Assembly (NCBI GenBank): GCA_964016885.1
Contig: OZ024742.1
Span: 128,526,001-128,590,000, forward strand
Length of the DNA: 64,000 nucleotides
Direction of reading: 5' to 3'
DNA from: Eledone cirrhosa
Taxonomy: Eukaryota
The notes under the pieces are model-generated. The model saw only the letters and a program-made list of their open reading frames with translations, had not been told where the DNA came from and ran no database searches. Position 1 is the stretch's first letter. Each line of letters begins with the position of its first letter. This document shows positions 6,001 to 56,847 of this stretch, piece by piece. The position numbers and the translations under genes were made by a program.

Positions 6001-7777
6001 AACACTGCGATGGACTGGTCTCCTGCACAGGGGGGGGGGTCTATTACCAATAACTAGGGTTTTAACACTGCGATGGACTGGTCTCCTGCCCAGGGGGTGG
6101 GGTCTATTACCAATAACTAGCGTTTTAACACTGCGATGGACTGGTCTCCTGCCCAGGGGGTGGGGTCTATTACCAATAACTAGGGTTTTAACACTGCGAT
6201 GGACTGGTCTCCTGCCCAGGGGGTATATTACCAATAACTAGGGTTTTAACACTGCGATGGACTGGTCTCCTGCACAGGGGGGGGTCTATTACCAATAACT
6301 AGGGTTTTAACACTGCGATGGACTGGTCTCCTGCCCAGGGGGTATATTACCAATAACTAGGGTTTTAACACTGCGAAGGACTGATCTCCTGCCCAGGGGA
6401 GTCTATTGCCAATAACTAGCGTTTTAACACTGCGATGGACTGGTCTCCTGCCCAGGGGGTGGGGTCTATTACCAATAACTAGGGTTTTAACACTGCGATG
6501 GACTGGTCTCCTGCCCAGGGGGTATATTACCAATAACTAGGGTTTTAACACTGCGATGGACTGGTCTCCTGCCCGAGGGGGGAGTCTATTACCAATAACT
6601 AGGGTTTTAACACTGCGATGGACTGGTCTCCTGCCCAGGGGAGTCTATTGCCAATAACTAGGGTTTTAACACTGCGATGGACTGGTCTCCTGCACAGGGG
6701 GGGGGGGGGGTCTATTACCAACAACTAGGGTTTTAACACTGCGATGGACTGGTCTCCTGCCTAGGGGAGTCTATTAGCAATAACTAGGGTTTTAACACTG
6801 CAATGGACTGGTCTCCTGCCCAGGGGGGGGGGTCTATTACCAATAACTATGGTTTTAACACTGCGATGGACTGGTCTCCTGCCCAGGGGGGGGGGAAGTC
6901 TATTACGAATAACTAGGGCTTTAACACTGCAATGGACTGGTCTCCTGCACAGGGGGGGGTATATTACCAATAACTAGGGTTTTAACACTGCGATGGACTC
7001 GTCTCCTGCCCAAGGGGGTGGGGTCTATTACCAATAACTAGGGTTTTAACACTGTGATGGACTGGTCTCCTGCCCAGGGGGGTCTATTAGCAATAACTAG
7101 GGTTTTAACACTGCAATGGACTGGTCTCCTGCCCAGGGGGGGGGGGGTCTATTACCAATAACTAGGGTTTTAACACTGTGATGGACTGGTCTCCTGCCCA
7201 GGGGGGGAGTCTATTACCAATAACTAGGGTTTTAACACTGCGATGGACTGGTCTCCTGCCCAGGGGGGGAGTCTATTGCCAATAACTAGGGTTTTAACAC
7301 TGCGATGGACTGGTCTCCTGCCCAGGGGGGGAGTCTATTGACAATAACTAGGGTTTTAACACTGTGATGGACTGGTCTCCTGCCCAGGGGGGGAGTCTAT
7401 TGCCAATAACTAGGGTTTTAACACTGCGATGGACTGGTCTCCTGCCCAGGGGCGGGGGGGGGGGTCTATTACCAATAACTAGGGTTTTAACACTGCGATG
7501 GACTGGTCTCCTGCCAAGGGGGGTCTATTACCAATAACTAGGGTTTTAACACTGCGATGGACTCGTCTCCTGCCCAAGGGGGTCTATTACCAATAACTAG
7601 GGTTTTAACACTGCGATGGACTGGTCTCCTGCCCAGGGGGGTCTATTACCAATAACTAGGGTTTTAACACTGCGATGGACTGGTCTCCTGCCCGGGGGGG
7701 GGGGATATTACCAATAACTAGGGTTTTAACACTGCGATGGACTGGTCTCCTGCCCAGGGCGAGGGGGGTCTATTACC
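1..7777. repeat. Tandem satellite, ~59-68 bp unit, roughly 125 copies, runs off the left edge
   Basis: Unit ctgcgatggactggtctcctgccca-[G-rich variable]-tctattaccaataactagggttttaaca repeats continuously; first period is 59 bp (positions 1 to 60); length variation sits in the G tract. Confidence 0.98.
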
Positions 7778-7850
7778 TTCAGTTGCTGCACACCATGGAA
7801 ACTGGGATAAGCACCGGCCTGATGAGGCTCCATGTTTCAGACAGACATTA
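7732..7850 (+). mobile_element. SINE 3' part (MetaSINE-like domain) continuous with the last satellite unit
   Basis: ctgcgatggactgg...ccagggg...gttgctgcacaccatggaaactgggataagcaccggcctgatgag resembles, from memory, the conserved Meta-domain SINE body. Confidence 0.55.
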
Positions 7851-8625
7851 GACTTAAAAACCTTCCATCATAGTTCTATATAAGAACCTTTGTTAAGTTA
7901 TGCTCCAAACAGCAGGTTAACTCTTTTGATACCAAACCACTTGAAACCATTTCTCATTGTATAATGCTAAACTGTTTATTGGAATTTCTTTATATTTATC
8001 TAACAACAATCATAGTTCTATGTAAGAATCTTTTATTGTAGTATCAGCACAAGAGAGACAGTCATGTCATCACTTTCACAGAAAAGCCCATTCAACCCTT
8101 TGCTTGATAATTTTTCTACAACTGAATGCCCTTCCTATCACCAATCACTTTATGGGGTGTACAAGATACATTTTATTGTGGCAACAATAAAAAGGTTGTT
8201 GTGCTCTTGACACACTTGATAAAACCTGCCATTCCCCTTGAGTGGGCCCGAAGTTGTGTCAGTACTCAATTGAATTTAACACCTCACGACCCTTGCTTTA
8301 TTTTGAATCAGTTTTTAACCTATATAATAGTTTTCTATTTAAGTAATTAGATTGATCTAATTTCTTAATTTTTATTAATGAATATGTTTTCTTTACTTTC
8401 TTCAATCAAAGTATTACCTTAGCTACATAATATCAAATAAATATGTAATGAACTATACGTGTAATACCACCTTTTTTCTGTAATCACTGAGGCATTTTCA
8501 GTTCATATATAAATAGCACTTACATAGCCTGTTTGATCGATGCACGTACTAGAACAGGCTGAAACTTGTCACATTAGAAATTAGCTATCTGTTCTTTCTT
8601 TTGTTATATATACACATACATATGC

Positions 8626-8661
<36 letters not shown>

Positions 8662-8740
8662 CCAAAGATTAATATGGTTTGTTCAATACAATTTTACAAT
8701 AGATTAAAAGCACTCAACAGGGAGTTTTCCTGGAGTTTTT

Positions 8741-9005
8741 AATATTATTCAGAATATTAACAAATGAAGGATATTCACATAATCAAAATATATGCTTTAT
8801 TATATATATTTCAAAGGTACTGTGTTGTTTTTTCAGTACGTCTTCATCATACAATTCCAGTACTGGAATTGTATAATCAATATCAAATCATATATTTCAT
8901 CTGATGAAGACGTACTGAAAAAACAACACAGTACCTTTGAAATATATATAATAAAGCATATATTTTGATTATGGGAATATCCTTCATTTGTTAATATTCT
9001 GAATA

Positions 9006-18006: not shown

Positions 18007-19808
18007 GTTGATTCTTCCTCTAATAGTACCAGTCTGGTACTGGGGTTGATTCTTCCTCTAATAGTACCAGTCTAGTAATGGGGTTGATTCTTCTTCTAAT
18101 AGTACCAGTCTAGTACTGGGGTTGATTCTTCTTCTAATAGTACCAGTCTAGTACTGGGGTTGATTCTTCTTCTAATAGTACCAGTCTAGTACTGGGGTTG
18201 ATTCTTCTTCTAATAGTACCAGTCTAGTAATCGGGTTGATTCTTCTTCTAATAGTACCAGTCTAGTACTGGGGTTGATTCTTCTTCTAATAGTACCAGTC
18301 TAGTACTGGGGTTGATTCTTCCTCTAATAGTACCAGTCTAGTACTGGGGTTGATTCTTCCTCTAATAGTACCAGTCTAGTACTGGGGTTGATTCTTCTTC
18401 TAATAGTACCAGTCTAGTACTGGGGTTGATTCTTCTTCTAATAGTACCAGTCTAGTACTGGGGTTGATTCTTCCTCTAATAGTACCAGTCTAGTACTGGG
18501 GTTGATTCTTCCTCTAATAGTACCAGTCTAGTACTGGGGTTGATTCTTCTTCTAATAGTACCAGTCAAGTACTGGGGTTGATTCTTCTTCTAATAGTACC
18601 AGTCTAGTACTGGGGTTGATTCTTCCTCTAATAGTACCAGTCTAGTACTGGGGTTGATTCTTCCTCTAATAGTACCAGTCTAGTACTGGGGTTGATTCTT
18701 CTTCTAATAGTACCAGTCTAGTACTGGGGTTGATTCTTACTCTAATAGTACCAGTCTAGTACTGGGGTTGATTCTTCTTCTAATAGTACCAGTCTAGTAC
18801 TGGGGTTGATTCTTCTTCTAATAGTACCAGTCTAGTACTGGGGTTGGTTCTTCTTCTAATAGTACCAGTCTAGTACTGGGGTTGATTCTTCTTCTAATAG
18901 TACCAGTCTAGTACTGGGGTTGATTCTTCCTCTAATAGTACCAGTCTAGTACTGGGGTTGGTTCTTCTTCTAATAGTACCAGTCTAGTACTGGGGTTGAT
19001 TCTTCCTCTAATAGTACCAGTCTAGTACTGGGGTTGATTCTTCTTCTAATAGTACCAGTCTAGTACTGGGGTTGATTCTTCCTCTAATAGTACCAGTCTA
19101 GTACTGGGGTTGGTTCTTCTTCTAATAGTACCAGTCTAGTACTGGGGTGGATTCTTCCTCTAATAGTACCAGTCTAGTACTGGGGTTGATTCTTCTTCTA
19201 ATAGTACCAGTCTAGTACTGGGGTTGATTCTTCTTCTAATAGTACCAGTCTAGTACTGGGGTTGATTCTTCTTCTAATAGTACCAGTCTAGTACTGGGGT
19301 TGATTCTTCCTCTAATAGTACCAGTCTAGTACTGGGGTTGATTCTTCTTCTAATAGTACCAGTCAAGTACTGGGGTTGATTCTTCTTCTAATAGTACCAG
19401 TCTAGTACTGGGGTTGATTCTTACTCTAATAGTACCAGTCTAGTACTGGGGTTGATTCTTCTTCTAATAGTACCAGTCTAGTACTGGGGTTGATTCTTCT
19501 TCTAATAGTACCAGTCTAGTACTGGGGTTGATTCTTCCTCTAATAGTACCAGTCTAGTACTGGGGTTGATTCTTCTTCTAATAGTACCAGTCAAGTACTG
19601 GGGTTGATTCTTCTTCTAATAGTACCAGTCTAGTACTGGGGTTGATTCTTCCTCTAATAGTACCAGTCTAGTACTGGGGTTGATTCTTCTTCTAATAGTA
19701 CCAGTCTAGTACTGGGGTTGATTCTTCTTCTAATAGTACCAGTCTAGTACTGGGGTTGATTCTTCTTCTAATAGTACCAGTCTAGTACCTGGGTCAATTC
19801 TTCCTCTA
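18007..19808. repeat. 38-bp tandem satellite, ~47 copies
   Basis: gttgattcttc(c/t)tctaatagtaccagtctagtactggg; phase at 18121 and 19261 identical (1140 = 30 x 38). Confidence 0.98.
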
Positions 19809-28094: not shown

Positions 28095-28621
<527 letters not shown>

Positions 28622-28625
<4 letters not shown>

Positions 28626-31865: not shown

Positions 31866-31922
<57 letters not shown>

Positions 31923-31923
<1 letters not shown>

Positions 31924-32109
31924 TTGAAAAAAATGAAGACGAAATTTCATTTCTCACTCTTAGTATGGCACTTACTTAAATGTAAGTATGTATGTATACG
32001 TACATACATATATGTATACAGACGTACAGTAGCATGCATATATATACATATATATATATGATGCGTGCATATATGTATGTGTACCTGTATGTATATATGT
32101 ATATATATG

Positions 32110-32140
<31 letters not shown>

Positions 32141-32597
32141 GCATGCTACTGTACGTCTGTATACATATATGTATGTACGTATACATACATACTTACATTT
32201 AAGTAAGTGCCATACTAAGAGTGAGAAATGAAATTTCGTTTTCATTTTTTTCAACTTATCGTTTTCGGTATGCCTGACCGATTTAACTCACTCAATATGC
32301 AAATTAGGCTGCTCAGCCGTTAATTTTCATAAGGAAAGTATATACTTTCGAACGTTCAACTATCTGGCAGATGGGTAAACGGTGCTGATGATAGCTAACA
32401 AGCTTGAAACTAGTACATCGTTCCTGTGTCAGTGTTGAACAAAAAGGTGACGTGGTTGCCTTAACACCGTATGGCATAAATTCAGGCTGTTCGGTTTGTT
32501 GACAAACAAACGAACAAAGCGGCGTTGTAATAAACGTCCGCTAAACTGATGCGTGCATATATGTATGTGTATCTGTATGTATATATGTATATATATG

Positions 32598-32630
<33 letters not shown>

Positions 32631-32683
32631 GCATGCTACTGTACGTCTGTATACATATATGTATGTACGTATACATACATACT

Positions 32684-32690
<7 letters not shown>
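31923..32690 (+). mobile_element. Family H1: inverted 5' arm plus ~1.3 head-to-tail monomers (period ~488 bp)
   Basis: 31923-32058 inverted against 32120-32256; 32061-32198 directly repeated at 32549-32688. Confidence 0.88.
32378..32422 (+). ncRNA. Minimal type I hammerhead ribozyme
   Basis: aacggtg-CTGATGA-tagct aaca agctt-GAAA-CTAG-TA-catcgtt. Confidence 0.85.
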
Positions 32691-32717
<27 letters not shown>

Positions 32718-33302
32718 CTGTAAATGAGGTGGGCGTTAGGAATGGCATCCAGCTGTAGAAATGAAGCCCAAATCAGTTCTGTATGAGCAAGACATGGTCG
32801 CTTGACCTGGCATTGCCCACAACCTGTCTAACCCATGCTAGTGTGGAAGAATGGACGAAAAACTATGATGATGATGATGATGTTGATGATATATATATAT
32901 ATATATATGTATGTATATATATATATAAATATTATATATATTTATGCATATTATGTACATATGTATACATATATATATATTAAGACAGTGGGGAATAAAA
33001 AATGGCTTCACTTGTGCTTTCAACAAATTTATTTTCTTCACAAAATCCAAAAAGAATTTTTTTCTGGATTAGAAAAAAAATTTTTCTTAGAAAAAATTAT
33101 TTTATAAATTAAGTTGTTGGTTGTTGGTTAGGTCTTAGGAGTTCTTGGTTAACGTAGGAGGTATTGTTTCGTTTTTAGAACGACCTTTCACGCTGAGGTG
33201 CGCTTGTCAAACTGATGTGTATGTGGTGTGTTGTTCTATATATAGGGATTTAACATGTCTGTCTTAATATACCTAACTGTACCAAGGATTACACACATTT
33301 TC

Positions 33303-33344
<42 letters not shown>

Positions 33345-33389
33345 AATTTATACATATATATGTATATATAATATATATATTTATACATA

Positions 33390-33437
<48 letters not shown>

Positions 33438-33442
<5 letters not shown>

Positions 33443-36130
33443 GACGGAGACATCGTTATGCTAGCAGGAGACTTCAATGGTCATGTTGGACAGCTCCAGG
33501 ATGGTTACACTGGGGTACATGGTGGGCACGGTTACGGTTCAAGAAATGAAGAAGGAGTGAGACTTCTTGAATTTTGTGATGCAAGTACATTGACTATTTG
33601 CAACACAAACTTCCAGAAACCTGCCAATCACCTAATAACATACAAATCTGGTGAGCACATAAGCCAGATTGACTTCCTGCTAGTTAGGCAGCGGGACAGG
33701 CAGATAGTGTCTAATACCAAGGCATACCCTGGGGAAGAATGTACCCCACAGCATAGGTTAGTTGTTAGTGATATCTCAGTAAGCAAGAGATGGAATGAGG
33801 CATATAGGAAGGTGTGGAGAAGAAAGGTCTGGAAGCTAAAAGACCTTTCACTAAAATTCAAATTTAGGAAAGCCCTTCAAGATGTATATGACGAAAAAGA
33901 AGACGATTTAGAGACGTATGACATAGATAATAACTGGAAGTTCTTACGTGACAACTTGCTGCAGGCTACTGATGAAACCTGTGGCTGGAGCAGAGCTCCA
34001 ACCAGACAGAGAGTGACCTGGTGGTGGAACAGCACAGTAGATAAGGCTATTAGAGACAAAAGACTAGCATGGAAGCCTTGGAAAAAGGGTGGGAGTAGGG
34101 AAGAATATACAGCCACTAAGAGAGAAGCTAGACGTCAGGTGTACTTAGCACGCAGGGAGGCAGAGAGTAGGAGGTTTGCCAATGTTCTGCGATGGGAAGA
34201 TCAGAGGCGTGCGGTGTTCCACATTGCAAGGCAGTGTGTCAATGCAAATCAGGATGTTGTTGGTGATAAATGTGTCCGGGATGATGCCGGTGTACTTAGT
34301 GTCACGAATGACCAGAAAAAGGAGGCCTGGAAATGTCATTATGAGAGACTGATGAATGTGGAGAACGAATGGGAGAGAGAGAAATTACCCTTGGTAGATC
34401 CGACAGAGGGACCAGCTATTGAGATTGACGAATATAGGGTCCAAGAGGCGATTAGGGAAATGAAAAATGGTAAGGCGGCCGGACCATCGGGAATAGTTGC
34501 TGAGATGCTGAAGGCATCAGGGGACGTAGGCACTAAACTGGTTGCACGCATCATCAATCAGGCTATATATGGTGGTGTCATACCCAAAGACTGGTGCAGC
34601 AGTATTCTCATAAATTGCTACAAAGGTAAAGGGGATGCTTTGGAGAGGAGCAATTATAGGGGTATAAAACTGATAGATCAGGTTATGAAAGTGGCAGAAA
34701 GGATTTTAGCACAACTAATTAGAGAAAGGGTCAAACTAGATGAGATGCAGTTTGGTTTTGTGCCTGGGAAGAGTACAACAGATGCCCTCTTCTTGGTGAG
34801 ACAAATGCAAGAGAGGTTCTTAGAGAAGAATAAGCCACTATACTTAGCCTTTGTTGACCTAGAGAAGGCCTTTGATAGGGTACCCCGATCTGTCATCTGG
34901 TGGTCCCTAAGGAAGCTGGGTGTTGAGGAATGGCTTGGGAGGACAGTGCAAACTTTGTACAGAGGTACTCTCAGTAAAGTCAGGGTAGGAATGGAGTTTA
35001 GTGAGGAATTCCAGATACAAGTAGGAGTACATCAGGGTTCGGTCCTCAGCCCGCTCTTGTTCATTATAGTCCTCCAAGCCATAACAGAGGAGTTTAAGAC
35101 TGGCTGTCCATGGGAACTTCTCTATGCTGACGATCTGGCTCTTATGGCAGAATCAGTAGAGGAGCTAGAGAATAAATTCCGGCTATGGAAACAGCAGTTG
35201 GAAGCAAGAGGACTGAGAGTAAATCTAGCTAAGACAAAAGTGTTGATGAGTAGAAAAGAGGACAAAAGCCTGATTCCGTCAGGGAAATGGCCATGTTCGA
35301 TATGCAGAAAAGGAACTGGCATAAATTCTATAAAATGCACACAATGCAGGTCCTGGGTACACAAGAGATGTAGCGGGATAGCAGGCAAACTAACAGGTAG
35401 GGAGAAATATGTATGCAGTAGATGTACAGGGAAATTAGACAGTAGAAGTCGCACTGATAGACACATTTTTCAAATGCGAGAGGGCGCTATAGAAGTGGTG
35501 GATAGCTTCCGGTACCTAGGAGATCAGATTAGCATGGGAGGAGGGTGTTCGGAGGCCATAGTATCTAGAATAAGGACGGGTTGGAAGAAGTTTAGGGAGC
35601 TGCTTCCTCTGTTGACGAAGAAGGGTTTCTCCCTGCGTACGAAAGGCCGGTTGTATGATGCCTGTGTGAGGAGCGCGATGCTGCATGGTAGTGAGACATG
35701 GGCAGCAACCGCAGAGGATATGCGACGGCTGGAGAGAAATGAGGCAAGCATGCTCCGTTGGATGTGCAGTGTAAATGTGCGTGAACGACCCAGCATAAAT
35801 GTGTTGAGAGAGAAACTGTGTCTGAGAGGGATAGAATGTAGTGTACGGGAGAGGAGACTGAGGTGGTATGGACATGTGATGCGCATGGAGGATGACCGAT
35901 GGGTGAAGAAGTGCCAGGAAATGCCAGTTGAAGGAAGACGTGGTAGAGGTAGACCACGAAAAACATGGGCGGAGGTGGTGAGAACAGACCTCAGATCATT
36001 GAAGCTCACGGTGGAGATGACGAGGGACCGTGACGAGTGGAGGGAGAGATGCTGTGCTGAATAAGACCCGTCCCACCCTTGCAAGCAGGGAAAAGCGGAC
36101 GTAAAATGATGATGATGATGATGATGATGA
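33438..36130 (+). mobile_element. RTE LINE (subfamily A), 5'-truncated, inserted in (TA)n
   Basis: (TA)n on both sides; uninterrupted ORF; ~50-bp 3' UTR then (gat)n. Confidence 0.97.
33458..36064 (+). CDS. RTE polyprotein: C-terminal half of APE endonuclease, reverse transcriptase, inserted PHD-type finger (N-terminus missing)
   Basis: 868 aa; GDFNGHVG, SQIDF, QFGF, AFVDLEKAFDRVP, GVHQGSVLSP, LYADDL, CSIC-x10-CTQC-x4-H-x2-C-x14-[27 protein letters not shown]. Confidence 0.93.
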   Translation: MLAGDFNGHVGQLQDGYTGVHGGHGYGSRNEEGVRLLEFCDASTLTICNTNFQKPANHLITYKSGEHISQIDFLLVRQRDRQIVSNTKAYPGEECTPQHRLVVSDISVSKRWNEAYRKVWRRKVWKLKDLSLKFKFRKALQDVYDEKEDDLETYDIDNNWKFLRDNLLQATDETCGWSRAPTRQRVTWWWNSTVDKAIRDKRLAWKPWKKGGSREEYTATKREARRQVYLARREAESRRFANVLRWEDQRRAVFHIARQCVNANQDVVGDKCVRDDAGVLSVTNDQKKEAWKCHYERLMNVENEWEREKLPLVDPTEGPAIEIDEYRVQEAIREMKNGKAAGPSGIVAEMLKASGDVGTKLVARIINQAIYGGVIPKDWCSSILINCYKGKGDALERSNYRGIKLIDQVMKVAERILAQLIRERVKLDEMQFGFVPGKSTTDALFLVRQMQERFLEKNKPLYLAFVDLEKAFDRVPRSVIWWSLRKLGVEEWLGRTVQTLYRGTLSKVRVGMEFSEEFQIQVGVHQGSVLSPLLFIIVLQAITEEFKTGCPWELLYADDLALMAESVEELENKFRLWKQQLEARGLRVNLAKTKVLMSRKEDKSLIPSGKWPCSICRKGTGINSIKCTQCRSWVHKRCSGIAGKLTGREKYVCSRCTGKLDSRSRTDRHIFQMREGAIEVVDSFRYLGDQISMGGGCSEAIVSRIRTGWKKFRELLPLLTKKGFSLRTKGRLYDACVRSAMLHGSETWAATAEDMRRLERNEASMLRWMCSVNVRERPSINVLREKLCLRGIECSVRERRLRWYGHVMRMEDDRWVKKCQEMPVEGRRGRGRPRKTWAEVVRTDLRSLKLTVEMTRDRDEWRERCCAE

Positions 36131-36458: not shown

Positions 36459-36499
<41 letters not shown>

Positions 36500-36500
<1 letters not shown>

Positions 36501-36591
36501 TTGTAATAAAATGAAAACGAAATTTCATTTCTCACTCTTAGTACGGCACTTACTTAAATGTAAGTATGTATGTATACGTACAGTAGCATGC

Positions 36592-36622
<31 letters not shown>

Positions 36623-37110
36623 TATACATACAGGTACACATACATATATGTACGTATCAGTTTAGCGGACGCTTATTATAGCGCCCGCTTTGTTCGTTTG
36701 TAAACAAACTGAACAGCCTGAATTTATGCTGCACGGTGTTAAGGCAACCACGTCACCTTTTTGTTCAACACTGACACAGGAACGATGTACTAGTTTCAAG
36801 CTTGTTAGCTATCATGCGCATGACCGATTTAACTCACTCGATATGCAAATTGGGCTGCTCAGCCGTTAATTTTCATAAGGAAAGTATATACTTTCGAACG
36901 TTCAACTATCTGGCAGATGGGTATACGGTGCTGATGATAGCTAACAAGCTTGAAACTAGTACATCGTTCCTGTGTCAGTGTTGAACAAAAAGGTGACGTG
37001 GTTGCCTTAACACCGTGCGGCATAAATTCAGGCTGTTCAGTTTGTTTACAAACGAACAAAGCGGGTGCTAAACTGATACGTACATATATGTATGTGTACC
37101 TGTATGTATA
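36500..37110. mobile_element. Family H1 fold-back copy (minus arm 36500-36815, plus arm 36820-37110)
   Basis: 36625-36814 inverted against 36934-37110; junction palindrome tcatgcgcatga at 36812-36823. Confidence 0.88.
36925..36967 (+). ncRNA. Minimal type I hammerhead ribozyme
   Basis: acggtg-CTGATGA-tagct aaca agctt-GAAA-CTAG-TA-catcgt. Confidence 0.85.
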
Positions 37111-37153
<43 letters not shown>

Positions 37154-41150: not shown

Positions 41151-41386
41151 TATATATATATATATATTATATATGTCTGTCAGCCACCCTCTGTTACTCT
41201 GTTACTTTTGCCGAGATTAAGTAAGTGACATAGTCACAACTTTAAAACCCATAGCGAATGGTCTTCTAAATGATTTTAATTAAACATACAGTATATTGCC
41301 AAATATACTATACATTCATACCCTTGCAAGCAGGGAAAAAGAGGACGTAAAATGAAATGATGATGATCATGCTGATGATATATATA

Positions 41387-41417
<31 letters not shown>

Positions 41418-41421
<4 letters not shown>

Positions 41422-43694
41422 GGACCAAAAACGTGAGGTGTTCAGGATTGCTAGGCAATGTGTCAAGGAAAACCGTGATATTGTCGGGGAGAAGTGTGTA
41501 CTTAATGATGATGGCATACTTGCCATCACTGACGCTGATAAGAAGGTAGCTTGGAAGTGTCACTATGAAAGGCTTCTAAATGAGGAGAACAAATGGGAGA
41601 AAGACAGTCTCCCCCACATCGACTCAATAGAGGGACCAGCAGTGTTAGTCGAAGGTAGTATAATAAGTAAGGCAATCAAAGATATGAAGACGGGTAAGGC
41701 AGCTGGGCCTTCGGAAATAGTTGCTGAGATGCTGAAAGCCTCTGGAACGGTGGGACACACCATGGTCACCCGGATAGTAAACCAAGTCATACAGAATGGG
41801 GTTGTTCCGAAGGACTTGCATAGCAGCATCATCATTAACTGTTACAAGGGTAAAGGAGATGCCCTAGATAGGTGTAACTATAGAGGCATTAAATTAATCG
41901 ACCAGGTCATGAAGGTCACGGAAAAAGTAATAGCGCAACTAATCAGAGAGAGAATTGATCTAGATGAAATGCAGTTCGGGTTTGTGTCAGGCAAAAGTAC
42001 CACAGACGCTCTTTTCATTGTACGACAACTACAGAAGTACCTAGCTAAAAGTAAACCCCTATACTTAGCTTTTGTTGACTTGGAGAAAGCCTTCGACAGA
42101 GTCCCCCGTTCCATTATCTGGTGGGCTCTTAGAAAACTAGGTGTTGACGAATGGCTTGTGAGAGCTATACAAGCCATGTATAAAGAAACAGTCAGCAAGG
42201 TTAGAATTAACAACGAATATAGTGAAGAGTTTAGCGTAAAAGTTGGTGTCCATCAGGGCTCTGTTCTTAGCCCCCTACTATTTATTATTGCCCTTCAGGC
42301 TATAACAGAGGAGTTCAAGACCGGCTGCCCATTGGAACTCCTATACGCAGACGACCTGACACTCGTAGCGGAATCAATGGCCGAGCTAGAGAAGAAATTC
42401 CAAACATGGAAGCACGGCCTAGAATCAAAAGCCTTAAAATTAACCTGGCTAAGACTAAAGTTCTAGTTTGTAGGAAAGAAAATAAGGCAGCGGTCCCTTC
42501 CGGGAAATGGCCATGCTCAGTGTGTAGGAAAGGCGTAGGTAGAAACTCCATTTTATGTCCCCAATGCAAAGTATGGGTGCATAAAAGATGTAGTGGGATC
42601 ACAGGTAAGCTAACTAAGAACATAGATTTTTACATGTGGCCGGTGCTCTGGTGCAATAAGTAGCAGCAAGTGCCCACAGAATACTAGCTCTTTCAATTGC
42701 GCAGAGGGTTCTATAGAAATAGTGGACAGCTTCCGTTACCTGGGTGACAAAATCAGCAGTGGGGGAGGGTGCTCTGAAAGTACAGTAGCTAGAGTCAGAA
42801 CTGGATGGAAAAAGTTCAGAGAGCTTATACCACTATTAGCTGCTAAAGGGTTCTCCCTAAAAATGAAAGGCAGGTTATACGATGCCTGCATACGAACAGC
42901 AATGCTACATGGCAGTGAGACCTGGGCATTGTGTGCAGAGGATATACGCAGACTAGAGAGGAACGAAGCTTGCATGCTCCGCTGGATGTGCAATAGTAAT
43001 ATACGTGAACGGCTAAGCATAAACGAACTAAGGAATAAATTAGAAATAAGAGGGATCAGATGTTGTTTACTCTAAAGAAGACTACGTTGGTACGGTCACG
43101 TGATGCGCATGAAAGACGATAGCTGTATAACAAAGTGCAGGGTAATAAAGATAGACGGTAGCCACGGAGTAGGCAGACCCAGAAAAACCTGGGACGACAT
43201 GATAAATTCCGACCTCACACGCTTACACCTCTCCAAGACAATGTCACTGGACCGAGACCTTTGGCGGTACTCAGTAATAGAGAAGACCCGCCTTACCTAA
43301 ATACAAAGTAAAAACCTACTACAGTCAGTAGGCTTCTCTATCAAAACACACCCCCGTCCCACCACCTCCACCCCATCCACACCGCCCCTTTCAATGTAAA
43401 GTTATGTTGGTGCCACAACATCCAGGCCGAAACAAATGAGATCGTGTAGGTGTCACGACAAAAAAACACACAGTCCACGCTGTAAATGTGGCCGTGTAGG
43501 CAACACGGTAAAAACCTCCCAGCCCCACACTGTAAATGTGGTTGGTGTTAGGAAGGGCATCCAGCTGTAGAAAACCCGCCAGACAGTCCTATGCGAGCAA
43601 GACAACCACTCTTGCCTCAAGTGGGAAAACCCACGTCCAAACCCATGCAAGCGTGGAACACGGACGCTAAACCTGATGATGATGATGATGATGA

Positions 43695-45772: not shown

Positions 45773-45947
45773 TTCATTGCTTTTATTTACATATATTCTT
45801 TATTTTGTTAAGATCAATCATTGATTATCTAGATAAGGGACAATAGAAACCAATAGAAACCAATGTCATTGGTTTCTATTGTCCCTTATCTAGATAATCA
45901 ATGATTAATCTTAACAAAATAAAGGATATATGTAAATAAAAGCAAAA
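45773..45947. repeat. Long hairpin, ~75-80 bp arms
   Basis: ttgcttttatttacatata...ggacaatagaaaccaat / attggtttctattgtcc...tatatgtaaataaaagcaa. Confidence 0.9.
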
Positions 45948-45976
45948 GATCAAAAGATGGTTAAAAGAGTTTCATG

Positions 45977-46047
45977 TATTTTATTATGCGCATTTCAAAA
46001 ACAAATATCATCATGCAATAACATTTGCGTTTTCGTCAGATAAAATA
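45977..46047 (-). ncRNA. Type I hammerhead ribozyme in the inverted pLTR
   Basis: Reverse complement of 49317-49387. Confidence 0.85.
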
Positions 46048-47133
46048 GGGAGACATGATATGAAGGTTAAAAAACACTTGTGAATAGTGCAGTTTTAAAT
46101 CAACATATGAAAAGTAGTTTTAGATTGATGTGTGATATTGGGAAAAAAAAAATGTTGAGGGGGTGCGGCTGGAAAGGATGAAAAAGAGGAGGAGATGAGA
46201 TTAAAAAGTGGAGGGGGAGGAGTATAATGAGGAAGGATGAGATAGGAGGAGAGATGGGTGATAGAGAGAGAGAGATAGTTTTATAACTGAGAAAAATATA
46301 TTGTTTTACATAGAGAGGGTAAAAAAACGTCGGAAGATAATGTATAAATTAAAAGAATTTGAAAATTAACGAAGAGAAAAAATTTAGAATAATGTTAAAT
46401 TAAATTAAGGTTTGTATATTGAAGGGTTTAATAATATGTGCGATGAAAAGAAATTGTTAATATGTATTAAGAATAATATTTAAGGGTTTAATAATATGTG
46501 CGATGGAAAGAAATTGTTGATATGTATTATTAAAAAATATGAAAATATAACAATAGTAATGTAATTAAGGATATATTGTGTCAAGATTAAGAGATACATC
46601 CAAGAAATTAGCTAGTTTGATGCTGTTATCAAATTCAATTTTTAAGTTATGTTGGTTAAAGAGATTACGTATATTGTTCTTAATAATATTAAGGTTAACT
46701 ATGTTGCAATTTAAGATAGTAAAGAGTCCATCGTCACGATAAATTCCATCGCGAAGTTGAGGAATTTTCCGATTCAAAGAGTTCAAAATAAAGATACCAA
46801 TTAAATCTGTCAATTAGGATGAATCGGATGCTCCAATTGTGATGTCAAAGTTGTTAGAGGTATCAGCTCTGGTCCAATATTCATTGTTGAACTCTAGGAT
46901 GGTTTTACGTGCGGTGAGAATGATGTGAAGTTCATCTGTGGTGACGTCTGAATATTTGTAAGCGAAAGATAGAGCATTGTTGAGAAGTGAGGGCGAAATA
47001 GAAGAATAGTAGCTGGCAATATCAAATTGAATAAATTTTTGTTTATTTTTCTTATTCAATTTGTTGAACCAGCCAATCACTTCAGAAGTACCAAACCATA
47101 AATTTAAGTTCAAAGAAGAGCAATTAGAACAAA

Positions 47134-48344
47134 CTAATTTCTTGGATGTATCTCTTAATCTTGACACTGGCCTATATTACCCTTACCATAAAAACAATGA
47201 GAACCTAAATTATGTTAATTTTAAATCTAACCACCCCACTAATACTAAGAATGCTATAGTTAGTAATATTGGAAAAAGAATATCCAACCTATCTTCTAAT
47301 AAAAACATCTTTGATGCTAACGCCAATTACTATAATAACGCGCTTTCTAAAGCTGGTTATCCCGATAAAATCAAATATAGTAAAGAAACAAATTCTAGAA
47401 GATCTTACAGTAGAATAATTAATCATGATCATTCCAATAACTTTAATAAAAGACCTAGATACAAAAACATAATCTGTTATAATGCTCCTTTCTCCATCTC
47501 TATTAATAATAATATTCCTAAATTATTCTTTAGTGCCTTAAATAAATGCTTCCCTCCCTCACATATCTATAGTAAAATATTTAACAAACACACTATAACA
47601 TTTTCCTATTTGACCTCCTTCAACATCTCCAACATTATCTCTAAACACAACAATAAAATACTAAATACTAAATCTCTTCCTTCCAACACTGAATATCATA
47701 ATAATAGTAATAGTACTCCCGACGTCATTGTTAACTCTAGGCTAATTTCTGCAAACCCAAATACAACGTCAAACGCAACTTCGTTAAATGTTCTTAATCC
47801 CATTCTAAATCAAGAAACTATTATTCCTATCGTAAATAACTTCTCCAATCCAATTCCTTCTATAGATAACACTAGGTCACTTGTTAATAACTCTGTTAAT
47901 TTCTTTAATCGCAATTGTAATTGCCCTGTTAAAAATAAATGTCCTCTCAACAACCATTGTCTTGAAAAAAACTTAACCTACGAATGTAAAGTTATAACTG
48001 ACACCAATTCCTTTACCTATTTTGGCTCCACTTCCACCTCCTTTAAAGCTCGTCTTTATAATCATCATTCATCTTTTAAATACCAACTTAAAAGAACCAA
48101 CACGGCACTCTCAGAACTCATATGGTCCTTGAAAGACAAAAATATTAACTATAACATCTCTTGGAAGAAGGTTTGTTCTGCTTCTCCATACTTGAATGGT
48201 TCTCTATCCAAGACATACAATCTCTGTTTATGTGAAAAATTTACCATTATATCTAATTTAGATTCTATAATAAATAGACGCATTGACTTGTTTTCTCTCT
48301 GCTTGCATAAATTCCACAGAACATTCCATAAAGTATACAGCTAA
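47134..48344 (+). CDS. PLE RT C-terminus plus GIY-YIG endonuclease (5'-truncated, frame open)
   Basis: NFLDVSLNL, SNHP, CNCPVKNKCPLNNHCL..TYECKV..YFGSTSTSFKARLYNH, LCLCEK, CLH. Confidence 0.85.
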
Positions 48345-49316
48345 TATCTAATACTTTACCAATTTAAAATCCTTTTCTCAAAGGCACATATATATATATA
48401 TATATATACATATATATTTCTTTAAAAATATACCCATCTTTCTACCTTATTTCAATGGTATTTATTATACATTATATACTAGTTACTCATTCAATATCAC
48501 TTCCCTTTCTTTCTTTTTTCCTTTTTTCTTTTCTTTTTTTCTTTTTCTTTTAATTTCTAACCTCTAATCTGTACATTTTCTTCCTAGATACTTCTCAATT
48601 CTCATTATTACTCAGCACAATATATCCTTACTTCATAATATCACCTTGAAAAAATCCTTCGTAAACATAAACATTTTTTTGACGTTAGATTATTCATCCT
48701 CAATTGATTATTTTTTTCTCCCTTTCATGCTCATCTAACTTATACATATTACACTTATTCATCCACTCTTCTACTTCTTTTCACAATATATCCTTAATTA
48801 CATTACTATTGTTATATTTTTATATTTTTTAATAATACATATCAACAATTTCTTTCCATCGCACATATTATTAAACCCTTAAATATTATTCTTAATACAT
48901 ATTAACAATTTCTTTTCATCGCACATATTAAACCCTTCAATATACAAACCTTAATTTAATTTAACATTATTCTAAAATTTTTCTCTTCGTTAATTTTCAA
49001 ATTCTTTTAATTTATATATTATCTTCCAATGGTTTTTTTAACCTCTCTATGTAAAACAATATATTTTTCTCAGTTATAAAAGCTATCGCTCTCTCTCTAT
49101 CACCCATCTCTCCTCCTATCTCATCCTTCCTCATTATACTCCACCCCCTCCACTTTTTACTCTCATCTCCTCCTCTTTTTCATCCTTTCCACCCCACCCC
49201 CTCCCTCTCAAAAAAATGTTTCCCAATATCACACATCAATCTAAAACTACTTTTCATATGTTGATTTAAAACTGCACTATTCACAAGTGTTTTTTAACCT
49301 TCATATCATGTCTCCC

Positions 49317-49387
49317 TATTTTATCTGACGAAAACGCAAATGTTATTGCATGATGATATTTGTTTTTGAAATGCGCATAATAAAATA
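49317..49387 (+). ncRNA. Type I hammerhead ribozyme in the pLTR
   Basis: tattttat-CTGACGA-aaacgcaaatgttat...atgatatttgttttt-GAAA-TGCGCA-TA-ataaaata; 8-bp stem I. Confidence 0.85.
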
Positions 49388-49508
49388 CATGAAACTCTTT
49401 TAACCATCTTTTGATCTTATATATTATTTATACTCCAGTCCTACAAACTGTAGAGTGCTACTTAACCGATATCTACATTGCTTTATTGTACTACAATAAA
49501 ACTCACCT

Positions 49509-49596
<88 letters not shown>

Positions 49597-49651
49597 CTGT
49601 GTCATTGGTTTCTATTGTCCCTTATCTAGATAATCAATGATTGATCTTAAC

Positions 49652-52290
49652 GTAGGCATTTTCCTGGCTGAGAGATGGATCAATAAGACAATAGAGGTAG
49701 TTCGAGTTAGTAATAGAATAATTAAGCTTAGATTAGTTGTAGGCAGGAGACTACTGACAATCATCTCTGCCTATGCTCCCCAAGCAGTCCTAGGCAAAAA
49801 TGAGAAAGACTGCTTTTACGAGCAACTTTTACAAACAACCGCAATGACAGAGGACGGAGACATCGTTATGCTAGCAGGGGACTTCAATGGTCATGTTGGA
49901 CAGCTCCAGGATGGTTACACTGAGGTACATAGTGGGCACGGTTACGGCTCAAGAAAGGAAGAAGGAGTGAGACTTCTTGAATTTTGTGATGCAAGTACAC
50001 TGACTATTTGCAACACAAACTTCCAGAAACCTGCCAACCACCTAATAACCTACAAATCTGACGATTTAGAGACGTATGACATAGATAATAACTGGAATTT
50101 CTTACGTGACAATTTACTGCAGACTACTGATGAAACTTGTGGCTGGAGCAGAGCTCCAACCAGACAGAGAGTCACCTGGTGGTGGAACAGCACAGTAGAT
50201 AAAGCCATTAGAGACAAAAGACTAGCATGGAAAGCTTGGAAAAAGGGTGGGAGTAGGGAATAATATACAGCCGCTAAGAGAGAAGCTAGACGTCAGGTGT
50301 ACTTAGCACGCAGGGAGGCTGAGAGTAGGAGGTTTGCCAATGTTCTGCGACGGGAAGATCAGAGATGTGCGGTGTTCCGCATTGCAAGGCAGTGTGTCAG
50401 TGCAAATCAGGATATTGTTGGAGATAAATGTGTCCGGAACGACGCCGTTGTACTTAGTGTCACGAATGATCAAAAGAAGGAGGCCTGGAAATGTCATTAT
50501 GAGAGACTGATGAATGTGGAGTACGAATGGGAGAGAGAGAAATTACCCTCAGTAGATCCGACAGAGGGACCAGCTATTGAGATTGACGAATATAGGGTCC
50601 AAGAGGCGATTAAGGAAATGAAAAATGGTAAGGCTGCTGGACCATCGGGGAGATTGCTGAGATGCTGAAGGCATCAGGGGACGTAGGCACTAAACTGGTT
50701 GCTCGCATCATCAATCAGGCTATATATGGTGGTGTCATACCCAAAGACTGGTGCAGCAGTATTCTCATAAATTGCTACAAAGGGGATGCTCTGGAGAGGA
50801 GCAATTATAGGGGTATAAAACTGATGGATCAGGTTATGAAAGTGGCAGAAAGGATATTAGCACAACTAATTAGAGAAAGGGTCAAACTAGATGAGATGCA
50901 GTTTGGTTTTGTGTCTGGGAAGAGTACAACAGATGCCCTCTTCTTGGTGAGACAATTGCAAGAGAGGTTCTTAGAGAAAAATAAGCCACTATACTTAGCC
51001 TTTGTTGACCTAGAGAAGGCCTTTGATAGGGTACCCCGATCTGTCTTCTGGTGGTCCCTAAGGAAACTAGGTGTTGAGGAATGACTTGTGAGGACAGTGC
51101 AAACTTTGTACAGAGGTACTCTCAGTAAAGTTAGGGTAGGAATGGAGTTTAGTGAGGAATTCCAGATACAAGTAGGAGTACATCAAGGTCCGGTCCTCAG
51201 CCCGCACTTGTTCATTATAGTCCTCCAAGCCATAACAGAAGAGTTAAGACTGGTTGTCCATGGGAACTTCTCTATGCTGACGATCTGGTTCTTATAGCAG
51301 AATCAGTAGAGGAGCTAGAGAATAAATTCTGGCTATGGAAACAGCAGTTGGAAGCAAGAGGACTGAGAGTGAACCTAGCTAAGACAAAGGTGCTGATGAG
51401 TAGAAAAGAGGACAAAACTCTGATTCCGTCAGGGAAATGGCCATGTTCGATATGCAGAAAAGGAACTGGCATAAATTCTATAAAATGCACACAGTGCAGA
51501 TTCTGGGTACACAAGAGATATAACGGGATAGCAGGCAAACCTACAGTTTGGGAGAAATATGTATGCAGTAGATGTACAGGGAAATTAGACAGTAGAAGTC
51601 GCATTGATAGACACATTTTTCAAATGCAGGCGGGTGCTATAGAAGTGGTGGATAGCTTCTGGTACCAAGGAGATCAGATTAGCATGGGAAGGGGGGGTGT
51701 TCCGAGGCCTTAGTATCTAGAATAAGGACGGGTTGGAAGAAGTTTAGGGAGCTGCTTCCTCTGCTGACGAAGAAGGGTTTCTCCCTGCGTACAAAAGGCC
51801 AGTTATATGATGGCTGTGTGAGGAGCGCGATGTTGCCTGGTAGTGAGACATGGGCAGCAACTGCAGAGGATATGCGACGGCTGGAGAGAAATGAGGCAAG
51901 CATGCTCCGTTGGATGTGCAGTGTCAATGTGCGTGAACGACCCAGCATGAATGTGTTGAGAGAGAGACTGTGTCTGGGAGGGATAGAATGTAGTGTACGG
52001 GAGAGGAGACTGAGGTGGTATGGACATGTGATGCGCATGGAGGATGACTGATGGGTAAAGAAGTGCCAGGAAATGCCAGTTGAAGGAAGATGTGGTAGAG
52101 GTAGACCACAAAAAACATGGGCGGAGGTGGTGAGAGCAGACCTCAGATCGCTGAAGCTCACGGTGGAGATAACGAAGGACCGTGACAAGTGGAGAGATGC
52201 TGTGCTGAATAAGATCCGTCCCACCCTTGCAAGCAGGGAAGAGCGGACGTAAAATGATGATGATGACGATGATGATGATGATGATGATAT
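49652..52290 (+). mobile_element. RTE LINE (subfamily A), 5'-truncated, stops, frameshifts and an internal deletion near 50058
   Basis: Highly similar to 33438-36130; flanked by a ~60-bp direct repeat. Confidence 0.95.
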
Positions 52291-54436: not shown

Positions 54437-54440
<4 letters not shown>

Positions 54441-56410
54441 TGATGTGGACGAATATAATGCAGACCAACAAAAGGACTGCCAACAACTTCCAGGCCTGGA
54501 ACAATGACGTGCCGGCGTTGTATGGGCTTCGAAAAGACCATAAAACGGGCTGGGACCCTGTCGCGGGACCACCAACACGGCCAGTCTGTGGGGCTAACAT
54601 TGCTAGTAACTACAGACTGTCCTACTTCCTCTCCCTGATCATACGCCCCATCATTGAAATGTCCCCAGATGTATGTGACAGCACGGAGGACCTCCTCAGC
54701 AGAATCGGCGTGGGTAACCGATCTGGGGACCTAACAAACTGCATAATAGGCAGTATGGATGTTGTGTCCCTGTATCCATCTATTGACGTGGATTTTGCTG
54801 TGGAGAAATGCTTAGAAATGATCAGTGAGAGCAAGGTTGAGTTCCGTGGGATTGATACCAGTGAGCTGGGACTCCTACTTAAGCTTACCTATAGTAATAG
54901 TTACCTAGACACTTATGACCTTAGCAACCTGTGCCCTACAAGACCAGCAAGAGGCAGACCACCTACCATTACCTCAATGGCCAAGAAAACCCACACAGAT
55001 AGATGGAACGGGTGGACCAGAGCCATACGGACACCCGAAAACCACGATGAACTGAAGAAAATGATTGCACATGCGGTAGGGGCCAGCATAAAACTAACCC
55101 TTAAGGAACATATGTTCAAATTTAATGGAAAAACATATGCCCAAGAGGAAGGAGCAGCCATTGGTGTTAGCATTGCAGGCGACATAGCTAACTTATTCAT
55201 GGTATGGTGGGACAGTAGACTTAAACTTAAACTTAAAGAACAATTAGAAGACCCCTTAACCCTGATAATGTACTCCCGCTACGTAGATGATATAAACATC
55301 GTAGTTAAGACAACCCCACTAGAGAACAGTCAGGAACTAGAGAAAAACACAATGGAAAGCATCCAGCAAATAGCAAACTCCATCCACCAGAACATTAGAG
55401 TTACTATAGACTACCCAAGTAAACACCCCAACCATCGATTACCTGTACTAGACACAGAGCTCTGGTTAGATACCATTAACAACAAAAAATAAATCCTCCA
55501 TTCCCATTATGCCAAACCCATGACTTCCAAACATCTGATCCACCGAAACTCGGCCATTTCGGACCATACCAAAATCAACATACTGATTGCGGATTTGGTA
55601 CGGGTGATGAGAAATGTGTCCCGCATGTGCAACACCGAAGAACTAGAGAGACCCATACAACACTTCATCCACCGTATGCCGTTCTCTGGTTACAATCAGA
55701 GAGATAGAATCAGAGTGTATAGAGGAGCCAGAACCAAATGGGAAAAAATGGTAAATAATGACATAAATGGGACCTGCCCCTTGTATAGGAGCAAATTTTG
55801 GAATAGAATAGAAAGAACTAGGAACAAGGCTAATAGAATAAACTCATGGTATGATAGCAATAAATACCTGAGTGTAATGTTCATCAATACAACCCCTAGA
55901 GGTGAATTAGCTTACAAATTTAGAAGGGCCCTAAATAAACATAAACTCAATATTAAGATAGTAGAAAGACCAGGTACCTCCGTAAAAACACTTATTAGCA
56001 AGACATACCCTTTTCAAAGACCCTCATGTATAGATAAGAAATGTATAACCTGTAAAATAAGCCCCCATATTAACTGTAAAACTAGAAATGTAGTGTATAG
56101 CATAAGATGTACTGAAGGACAATGTAGAGACAAAAATATAGTGTACATAGGTGAGACAGCTCGTAGTGTAGGGGAACGGATAAATGAACACTGGCGAGAC
56201 CTTCAAGATAATAAAGAATCATCTGTACTCTACCAACATGCTAAGATAGAACACAAGGGTAAATTAGAGAACATAGAAATAAAAATAGAATCTACACACA
56301 GAAAAGACGCAATGTTTAGACAAATTACAGAGGCAATAAACATAAAAGAATTACAACCAAAATTAAATAGAAAATATGAGTGGAACAGCAACATCACAAC
56401 TTACAATTAA
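54437..56410 (+). pseudogene. PLE RT + GIY-YIG ORF broken by one in-frame TAA (55490-55492)
   Basis: LYGLRKDHK, SMDVVSLYPSI, GAAIG, YSRYVDDI, LPVLD; CIDKKCITC, NVVYSIRC, YIGETARSVGERINEH, RQITEA, LNRK; both track ORFs are in the same frame. Confidence 0.88.
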
Positions 56411-56610
56411 GGACAAAATGAAAACACACACACACATAGAACAAACAACCAACCAGTAACATGTAAATAAACAAATAAATAAATGAACATAAACACACAC
56501 AGACACCCGGATGTGGCGCATGCGCAGACTGAGCACACAACACACACACAGAAACAAAATGGCGTAGGACAGAACAAAGGAGAGGCACAGAAACAAAGAA
56601 AGGAATCCCC

Positions 56611-56655
56611 AGTCACTGAAGAGGTCACAGAGTGTGTGACGAAAGAACTATGACT
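56611..56655 (+). ncRNA. Minimal hammerhead ribozyme motif
   Basis: agtca-CTGAAGA-g-gtcaca gagtg tgtgac-GAAA-gaac-TA-tgact. Confidence 0.75.
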
Positions 56656-56797
56656 ATATATAAACAACTATATGCTTGTGGAACCAACCAACCAACCAGA
56701 AATTTATAAATTTCTAAATTTCTAAATATATAATAAATTGAAGTGAAAGCAACTGGTGCGTGTGTTTCTTATTGGCAACATGACCCTCCCAAAGTAT

Positions 56798-56847
<50 letters not shown>

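Follow-up and report, generated by a model that had tools for sequence, protein, structure and literature searches.

A 64,000-nucleotide stretch of the Eledone cirrhosa genome (the window; 128.53-128.59 Mb of contig G000:C3, in an assembly of 3.0 Gb) carries a repeat with a predicted hammerhead and without an open reading frame (ORF) that probably relies, in trans, on the reverse transcriptase (RT) and endonuclease of an autonomous Penelope-like element (PLE) for its copying, with insertions that start at two sites and leave two arms head to head; we put the probability of this reading at about 0.8. Given the two fixed ends, the inverted arms, the (TA)n targets and the finding that no copy examined stood as the pLTR behind a PLE ORF, the repeat is best regarded as a non-autonomous PLE passenger, i.e., a non-LTR retrozyme. 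An initial annotation had proposed a non-autonomous hammerhead retroelement mobilised by a PLE, and the two-start tail, the head-to-head inversion, the (TA)n targets and the absence of an attached ORF support that proposal, with PLE mobilisation being likely.

The repeat constitutes a real, young and very abundant family of tandem type I hammerhead units that lack an ORF. Exact matches to the hammerhead core numbered 25,012 genome-wide and a pattern allowing closures other than U.U yielded 1,051 more, with zero matches for both reversed controls. The units are about 420-510 nt long (538 nt at most among those measured), have GC contents of 0.35-0.38, carry no conserved ORF and occur in copies ranging from single units to arms of 14-16 full units. 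Pairs of cores were spaced at 416-436 nt in 2,496 cases and at 466-496 nt in 4,796 cases, and at neither spacing in the controls. The best 40 full-length matches to the unit of the window were 100% identical, lay on four contigs and were located mostly within arrays. Contigs of four sequencing runs also showed the subfamily variation; they carried no insertion ends and have no bearing on expression.

Positions 31919-32691 of the window constitute one insertion, sandwiched between two (TA)n tracts and consisting of a forward arm and an inverted arm (Table 1). The 3' end of the inverted arm (~31919-31923) corresponds to the long end of the family, including a tail of ~58 nt, and its inner boundary (~32060) is approximate, falling inside a (TA) tract. 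Hairpins are predicted at both starts of the tail; the folds were obtained for six of the seven subfamily references and the short-end hairpin for five. Sequence comparison bore out the occurrence of the family at three loci in the window (near 28, 32 and 36.5 kb), the head-to-tail junction, where the tail end abuts cgttttcgg at 32259/32260, and the repetition of 32061-32198 at 32549-32688 (138 versus 140 nt, with one substitution and a 2-nt tract change, at a period of 488). Two further descriptions in the initial annotation required correction: 31923-32690 is not all tandem, given that 31919-~32060 is an inverted arm, and the 36.5-kb locus is not one copy but two opposed arms, the second of which extends to ~37150. 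The view that the sequence holds no meaningful ORF was confirmed, with ATG-initiated ORFs over 31919-32691 encoding 25-89 aa and arising chiefly from read-through of (TA) tracts. The window also contains minisatellites at 1-7777 (period 59, 127 copies) and 18007-19808 (period 38, 47 copies, 96% matches).

Table 1. Parts of the insertion at 31919-32691 and the other copies of the family in the window.
Feature	Positions	Strand	Basis or remarks
(TA)n target microsatellite, left flank	31869..31921		TRF and sequence
Inverted 5'-truncated arm	31919..32060	-	31919-32048 is the reverse complement of 32130-32259 (98.5%)
Forward arm, ~1.3 units of the 488-nt monomer	32061..32691	+	5'-truncated at ~32061; 3' end is the short end, 32688-32691
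Tail between the two inferred reverse-transcription starts	32199..32259	+	Short end 32198-32201, long end 32255-32259; end counts
Type I hammerhead motif	32379..32421	+	Pattern match, folding, conservation
Internal (TA)-rich tract of the unit	32563..32636	+	Slips; length often array-specific
(TA)n target microsatellite, right flank	32692..32716		Sequence
Older-subfamily copy, exactly one unit, 81% identical	28191..28623	-	Long end into (TA)n
Inverted arm of third insertion	36496..36815	-	Long end at 36496; 5' end within hammerhead core
Forward arm of third insertion, 95% identical	36818..37150	+	Intact core at 36931; 3' part absent, stops in internal (TA) tract

Insertion ends were mapped in a sample of 95 loci, in which 188 arms were chained using seven natural units as references; the loci were chosen by core or similarity and a few of the arms are segmental duplicates. 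The arm ends fell at reference position 51-59 in 73 cases, at 105-113 in 75, in the internal tract in 13 and elsewhere in 27, so that 148 of the 188 arms stop at one or the other of a pair of fixed 3' points, which are separated by ~58 nt; most of these arms lead into (TA)n. Because these loci had been picked by core or similarity, a second sample was drawn on the short-end/(TA)n junction, which has 6,470 exact matches genome-wide against one for the control. It consisted of 90 loci from the first 100 listed; two duplicates were dropped, 85 of the remaining 88 were parsed and 80 were clear of locus edges. A head-to-head inverted arm was present in 54 of these 80 short-end insertions and the partner arms ended at the long site (105-113) in 44 of the 54 and at the short site (51-59) in one. 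Target site duplications are unreadable since the ends are embedded in (TA)n. Three arms (L063 2161-2351, L119 4473-4663 and L327 1086-1271) stop at reference position 198-200, next to a TATATA microhomology, and this is possibly a minor third start site.

The 5' ends behaved differently from the fixed 3' ends. From a total of 134, the 42 located in or beside a (TA) tract were dropped as unplaceable, and the 92 scored were uniformly distributed (KS p 0.34). None of the 92 lay within 2 nt of the predicted cleavage site (1.2 expected) and 53 of the 80 short-end arms read through it. Genome-wide, breaks at the cut site were seen in 172 copies and breaks at a control position 10 nt downstream in 476; these counts are unnormalised and the control includes small indels. 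A pile-up of 5' ends at position 114, immediately behind the long end, noticed by eye in core-selected loci, was reduced to one of 92 in the end-anchored sample, with 1.2 expected. Random circular permutation is rejected because the 3' ends are fixed. Of the circularly permuted ~1.3-mer originally proposed for the insertion, the ~1.3 units therefore stand and the random permutation does not, the 3' end being one of the two fixed ends and the 5' end alone varying, and permuted endpoints, which had been suggested as a sign of a circle, are not supported by the mapping.

This end geometry resembles that of the Poseidon element PAc of Anolis carolinensis, whose PLE protein cleaves the two strands of AT-rich DNA and initiates reverse transcription internally, at two positions that delimit the tail seen in the genome (PMC11167929). 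PAc and the repeat share the two internal starts bounding a tail, the AT-rich targets, the hammerhead and the lack of any sign of cleaved RNA as a template, whereas PAc is autonomous and was tested in vitro, and the repeat lacks an ORF and its starts are deduced from genomic ends. By analogy with PAc, a PLE protein would nick both strands of a (TA)n tract, one cDNA would be primed from each of the two internal starts of the RNA, short and long, and these 5'-truncated products would then be joined head to head. Autonomous PLEs of the same genome also exhibit the two-end/(TA)n layout, with tails of ~59 and ~45 nt.

All these end features being PLE features, the copies could simply be pLTRs left by 5' truncation of an autonomous PLE that escaped detection in full-length form; most metazoan minimal hammerheads are described as truncated-PLE remnants (PMC4209133), and a few hundred insertions were looked at among many thousand. 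However, upstream of the hammerhead the sequence re-enters its own tail, up to 16 times per arm. Moreover, a same-strand PLE ORF match within 700 nt of a free 5' end was found in only two of 80 cases, one adjoining the copy in mid-ORF and the other lying 411 nt away, with the copy beginning downstream of its hammerhead; pLTR geometry was thus seen at none of the 80 free 5' ends (three loci being counted twice). Among 27 older-subfamily loci, none showed an upstream ORF end within 1.5-kb flanks. With an RT and GIY-YIG ORF directly upstream in 0/80 and 0/27 cases, copies are not always attached to a PLE ORF, in keeping with the initial annotation. For the arrays the truncated-pLTR reading is largely refuted, and overall we regard it as improbable.

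Among the results that count against a PLE passenger, no PLE 3' region homologous to the unit was detected in the fetched loci. The PLEs of the window, a young family with a CxxxxCxxC linker and matches to a relaxed hammerhead pattern were each tried as partner candidates and gave no DNA homology to the unit. The likely partner is a PLE with a CX2-5CxxC linker, a type that we take to be Neptune/Nematis from motifs (PMC8557442) rather than from a tree. The young family, which is autonomous (L078 1758-2400 and L285-L314), has several 775-aa open frames comprising RT, GIY-YIG and the CxxxxCxxC linker, with 150 of 8,038 candidates scored. Its hammerhead lies ~400 nt after the ORF and shows a U.U closure, a short helix II and a 4-nt palindrome, as in the repeat; 21 of 22 such U.U motifs stand after the ORF end of this family, and its two 3' ends are ~45 nt apart. 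The ESM Atlas indicated that the candidate partner protein is PLE-like and confirmed nothing further. The family points to a candidate partner clade rather than to the partner.

Several other hammerhead-bearing elements were observed. The window carries a PLE at 54437-56800 (+), with RT, a CxxxxCxxC linker, a GIY-YIG-like C-terminus and one in-frame stop, which bears a hammerhead of its own at 56616 and whose short end abuts (TA)n; its relatives exhibit a ~59-nt tail. Two PLE remnants of a different type (45946-49418 and 62596-63901), presumably Hydra-like as judged by motifs and not by a tree, have hammerhead motifs with a long helix II at 46039(-), 49325(+) and 63821(+), and related motifs occur at 8901 and 59363. 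Elsewhere in the genome, a second tandem hammerhead family (L087 ~6100-9000, L123 and L173, with a diverged relative in L077) has a 310-nt unit with a U.U closure and a loop 3 formed by the palindrome CGCG, and it too has inverted arms within (TA)n; a PLE ORF end preceded none of its 29 motifs. A dispersed near-palindromic motif (L036, L086, L102, L103, L116, L121 and L178) can, at some loci, be read as a hammerhead of the U.U type from either strand, and lacked an upstream PLE ORF end in 14 cases.

LINEs are also abundant near the copies, and a SINE-like element mobilised by an APE-type LINE (RT and PHD, e.g., window 33254-36064) was considered. No LINE-type simple-repeat 3' tail is present, the two alternative 3' ends and the head-to-head arms are PLE traits and no tRNA-like match was found inside the unit. 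The reading is disfavoured by the end geometry and we consider it most improbable. LINE ORFs with RT occur in the window at 33254-36064, 41351-42466 and 49634-51713, two of which encode a PHD finger downstream of the RT; the first, a 936-aa ORF between the copies, had been a candidate PLE and was rejected on the basis of its RT and PHD content.

Arrays could, in principle, also have grown locally as satellites or minisatellites, along the route put forward by Li et al. (2026), in which single pLTR insertions expand through unequal crossover. Two loci with ~50 and at least 33 diverged units (G000:C1 51.77-51.79 Mb, L144-146, and 53.36-53.37 Mb, L147-148) do look like satellite expansions with higher-order variant patterns, and L117 contains a duplicated dimer. 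Young arrays, however, are found on several chromosome-scale contigs with 99-100% identity, and multimers occur on both inverted arms, with the end of each arm at a fixed start in (TA)n, which implies that the layout was made at insertion. The satellite route accounts for a minority of loci only, and as a general explanation it is quite unlikely.

The hammerhead of the insertion comprises a helix I of 6 bp (32379-84/32416-21), CUGAUGA (32385-91), a helix II of 4 bp closed by U.U at 10.1/11.1 (32392, 32405), GAAA (32406-09), a palindromic ACUAGU forming helix III/loop 3 and a GUA triplet, with a predicted cut after 32415. The initial annotation had placed a hammerhead at each of the three loci, and intact cores do start at 28499(-), where the cut is predicted after 28469, 32385(+) and 36931(+). 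It had also stated that helix I pairing is kept between diverged copies, which holds for A-U versus G.U and extends to U.G in a third subfamily. Among 58 copies picked by 3' end, and hence unbiased with respect to the core, variation was 1.3% at the 11 catalytic positions, compared with 12.2% over positions 200-232 and 15.5% over 301-380. At the variable helix I pair, G.U occurred in 27 copies, U.G in 20, A-U in eight and no pairing in three, and the 10.1/11.1 pair was U.U in 51, C.A in six and C.C in one, the C.A copies representing an older subfamily with a GUU triplet. The core and helix I are conserved across subfamilies that are ~20% apart. Shuffles gave 1/500 for pairing, 3/500 for a covariation score and 264/500 for double changes, statistics that are weak because the 12-row alignment was hand-picked and the structure was taken from the same sequences.

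Folding predicts -6.8 kcal/mol for the ACUAGU loop-3 duplex between two copies, and in circle folds helix II formed in all six units and helix I largely in five, being improbable in the sixth. A competing non-catalytic fold, which lengthens helix I into the core, counts against an active hammerhead. The Rfam check suggested earlier gave a weak HH9 match alone that lies below threshold (18.5 versus 52 bits, E 0.041), and a scan of the whole window detected no hammerhead among 120 matches; Rfam miRNA matches in the window were dismissed as (TA)-tract artefacts. Judged by its sequence, the motif is an atypical hammerhead of the dimer type, with U.U or C.A at 10.1/11.1 and a palindromic helix III, and self-cleavage is predicted. 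Minimal dimer-acting PLE hammerheads (PMC4209133; Lunse et al. via PMC6765202) are likewise described, in the accessible parts of these sources, as type I with a palindromic loop 3 and a helix III stable only as a dimer, but they have a long helix II, G10.1-C11.1 and one extra nucleotide, as opposed to the 4-bp helix II closed by U.U or C.A in the repeat.

Concerning the template, a cleaved monomer copied by run-off is rejected, since there is no excess of breaks at the cut site and no 5' ends lie near it. Given the absence of a stop at the cleavage site, the template would be circular, a monomer that is primed anew or a multimer that was never cleaved, and DNA alone cannot tell these apart. 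We favour PLE mobilisation in each case, and consider an RNA circle to have slightly less than an even chance, and the same for an uncleaved multimer, with one monomer copied through repeated template jumps being unlikely. Our best guess is that a monomer is copied round and round, most simply as a circle that would arise when the hammerheads of a tandem transcript cleave it, in a dimer-dependent manner, and ligate the product; a few arrays grow later through DNA-level duplication.

Variation between arms bears on this choice. We compared 17 two-armed insertions with at least three full units, leaving out the two satellite-like loci. Distances between arms were similar to those within arms, except in L092 and L141, where they were larger, and in the heterogeneous L173. 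The variants comprised 138 singletons, eight common within one arm, four in subsets of both arms (L092 twice, L130 and L135) and seven that were fixed and private; the lengths of the internal tract were often array-specific. In L184 and L185, single changes had become fixed across every unit of the two arms. The subset variants shared by both arms and the heterogeneous L173 suit a multimeric template or gene conversion and not one monomer. Variants fixed across both arms imply that the template was homogeneous and that the lineage passed through a bottleneck of one monomer at some point. A circle supplies such a bottleneck simply, and an uncleaved multimeric transcript of an array that is young and homogeneous would yield the same picture. 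An ABAB pattern in L117 was evaluated as a dimer circle and attributed to later duplication, given that the 5' partial unit is out of phase. For L130 a donor haplotype was considered and discarded, as its 52-nt tract recurs on different backgrounds at nine other fetched loci, none with the same order; this test of shared unit order used one marker, which proved recurrent.

On the multimer reading, a PLE would act in trans on an uncleaved read-through transcript of a genomic array, the hammerhead would be a weak or vestigial pLTR legacy, no circle would form and DNA duplication would renew the long arrays. It is consistent with the lack of excess breaks at the cut site, with the atypical 10.1/11.1 pair, with the subset variants on both arms in three of the 17 insertions, with the existence of DNA-level expansions and with PAc, which uses unprocessed RNA and, with ribozyme mutants still inserting, does not need ribozyme cleavage for insertion (PMC11167929). 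Against it stand the conservation of core and helix I between the diverged subfamilies, the bottleneck required by variants fixed in all units of both arms and the absence of the ordered L130 haplotype, whose tract marker is recurrent, from the nine other loci.

Li et al. (2026; 10.64898/2026.07.22.740005) have concluded, in the accessible part of their paper, that animal retrozymes are non-autonomous PLE derivatives, based on 35 genomes (31 vertebrates, three insects and one anthozoan). They argue from co-occurrence and pLTR homology, the latter found for 24 of 57 Xenopus families, unlike the repeat described here, for which no homologous parent was found in the fetched loci; they also admit minimal hammerheads, accept units of 51-972 bp and report cleavage for one of nine tested elements. 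The available text of PMC7229834 describes mussel retrozyme circles with monomers of 170-400 nt, proposes PLEs as mobilisers and defines retrozymes by canonical hammerheads. As portrayed in these sources, non-LTR retrozymes resemble the repeat in lacking ORFs, in GC contents below 45% (35-38% for the repeat), in tandem type I hammerhead units occurring as monomers to multimers and in co-existing with PLEs as proposed mobilisers. The repeat unit, at 420-538 nt, exceeds the range given in 2020 and falls within that of 2026, and its hammerhead is of a non-canonical PLE type, mismatched at 10.1/11.1; its cleavage is a prediction and its circle hypothetical. Without the conserved G10.1-C11.1 pair it departs from the canonical hammerhead of the 2020 definition and, given this mismatch and the low Rfam score, it would be a retrozyme under the 2026 definition only, under which its sequence qualifies it as a non-LTR retrozyme.

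Some elements of the layout have precedents. An inverted arm and a one-sided tail are described for PLEs in the accessible parts of PMC8557442 and PMC3846280, and the former also covers Chlamys elements that are non-autonomous and arranged head to tail. Those such as MRC1 are, like the repeat, non-coding PLE derivatives with multicopy insertions in head-to-tail order, and PLE insertions are described there with an inverted arm, a one-sided tail and microsatellites as targets. The Chlamys elements, however, come from algae, share 3' similarity with their partners, mostly lack hammerheads and have tails of 30-40 bp against ~58 nt here. The available portions of PMC7229834 and Li et al. (2026) map neither two-start tails nor inverted arms for retrozymes, and both state the mobiliser and the template of retrozymes as open. 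A literature search (cephalopod, octopus and general) yielded no description of the 490-base family, with Repbase, Dfam and the supplements of the 2014 and 2020 papers, which may hold it, lying outside its scope, and the accessible part of an octopus repeat paper (PMC13282606) does not mention hammerheads or ribozymes. As far as these sources extend, what is new is the family itself and its clear PLE signature with mapped priming sites, retrozymes as PLE derivatives having been concluded already by Li et al. (2026).

The insertions themselves bear the signature of the PLE enzyme, and with the two priming sites mapped to within ~3 nt the question of mobiliser and template becomes testable with the in vitro assay already published for PLEs. 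The mismatch that is conserved at 10.1/11.1 broadens the known hammerhead variants, and Rfam thresholds miss such motifs. Tentatively, and at rather less than even odds, the arrays may be a record of rolling-circle reverse transcription, in which a circle of 420-500 nt, with a dimer-gated, mismatch-closed hammerhead, serves the PLE as a template on which each of the two nicked strands primes, the two sites lying 58 nt from one another, so that one event yields two multimers back to back. This reading draws on thousands of near-identical young insertions and on a second family built alike in the same genome and, if true, it would provide direct evidence for the retrozyme life cycle, which has been proposed and not yet demonstrated. 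A cis element of 0.5 kb that writes multimers into (TA)n tracts would represent a minimal PLE cargo signal.
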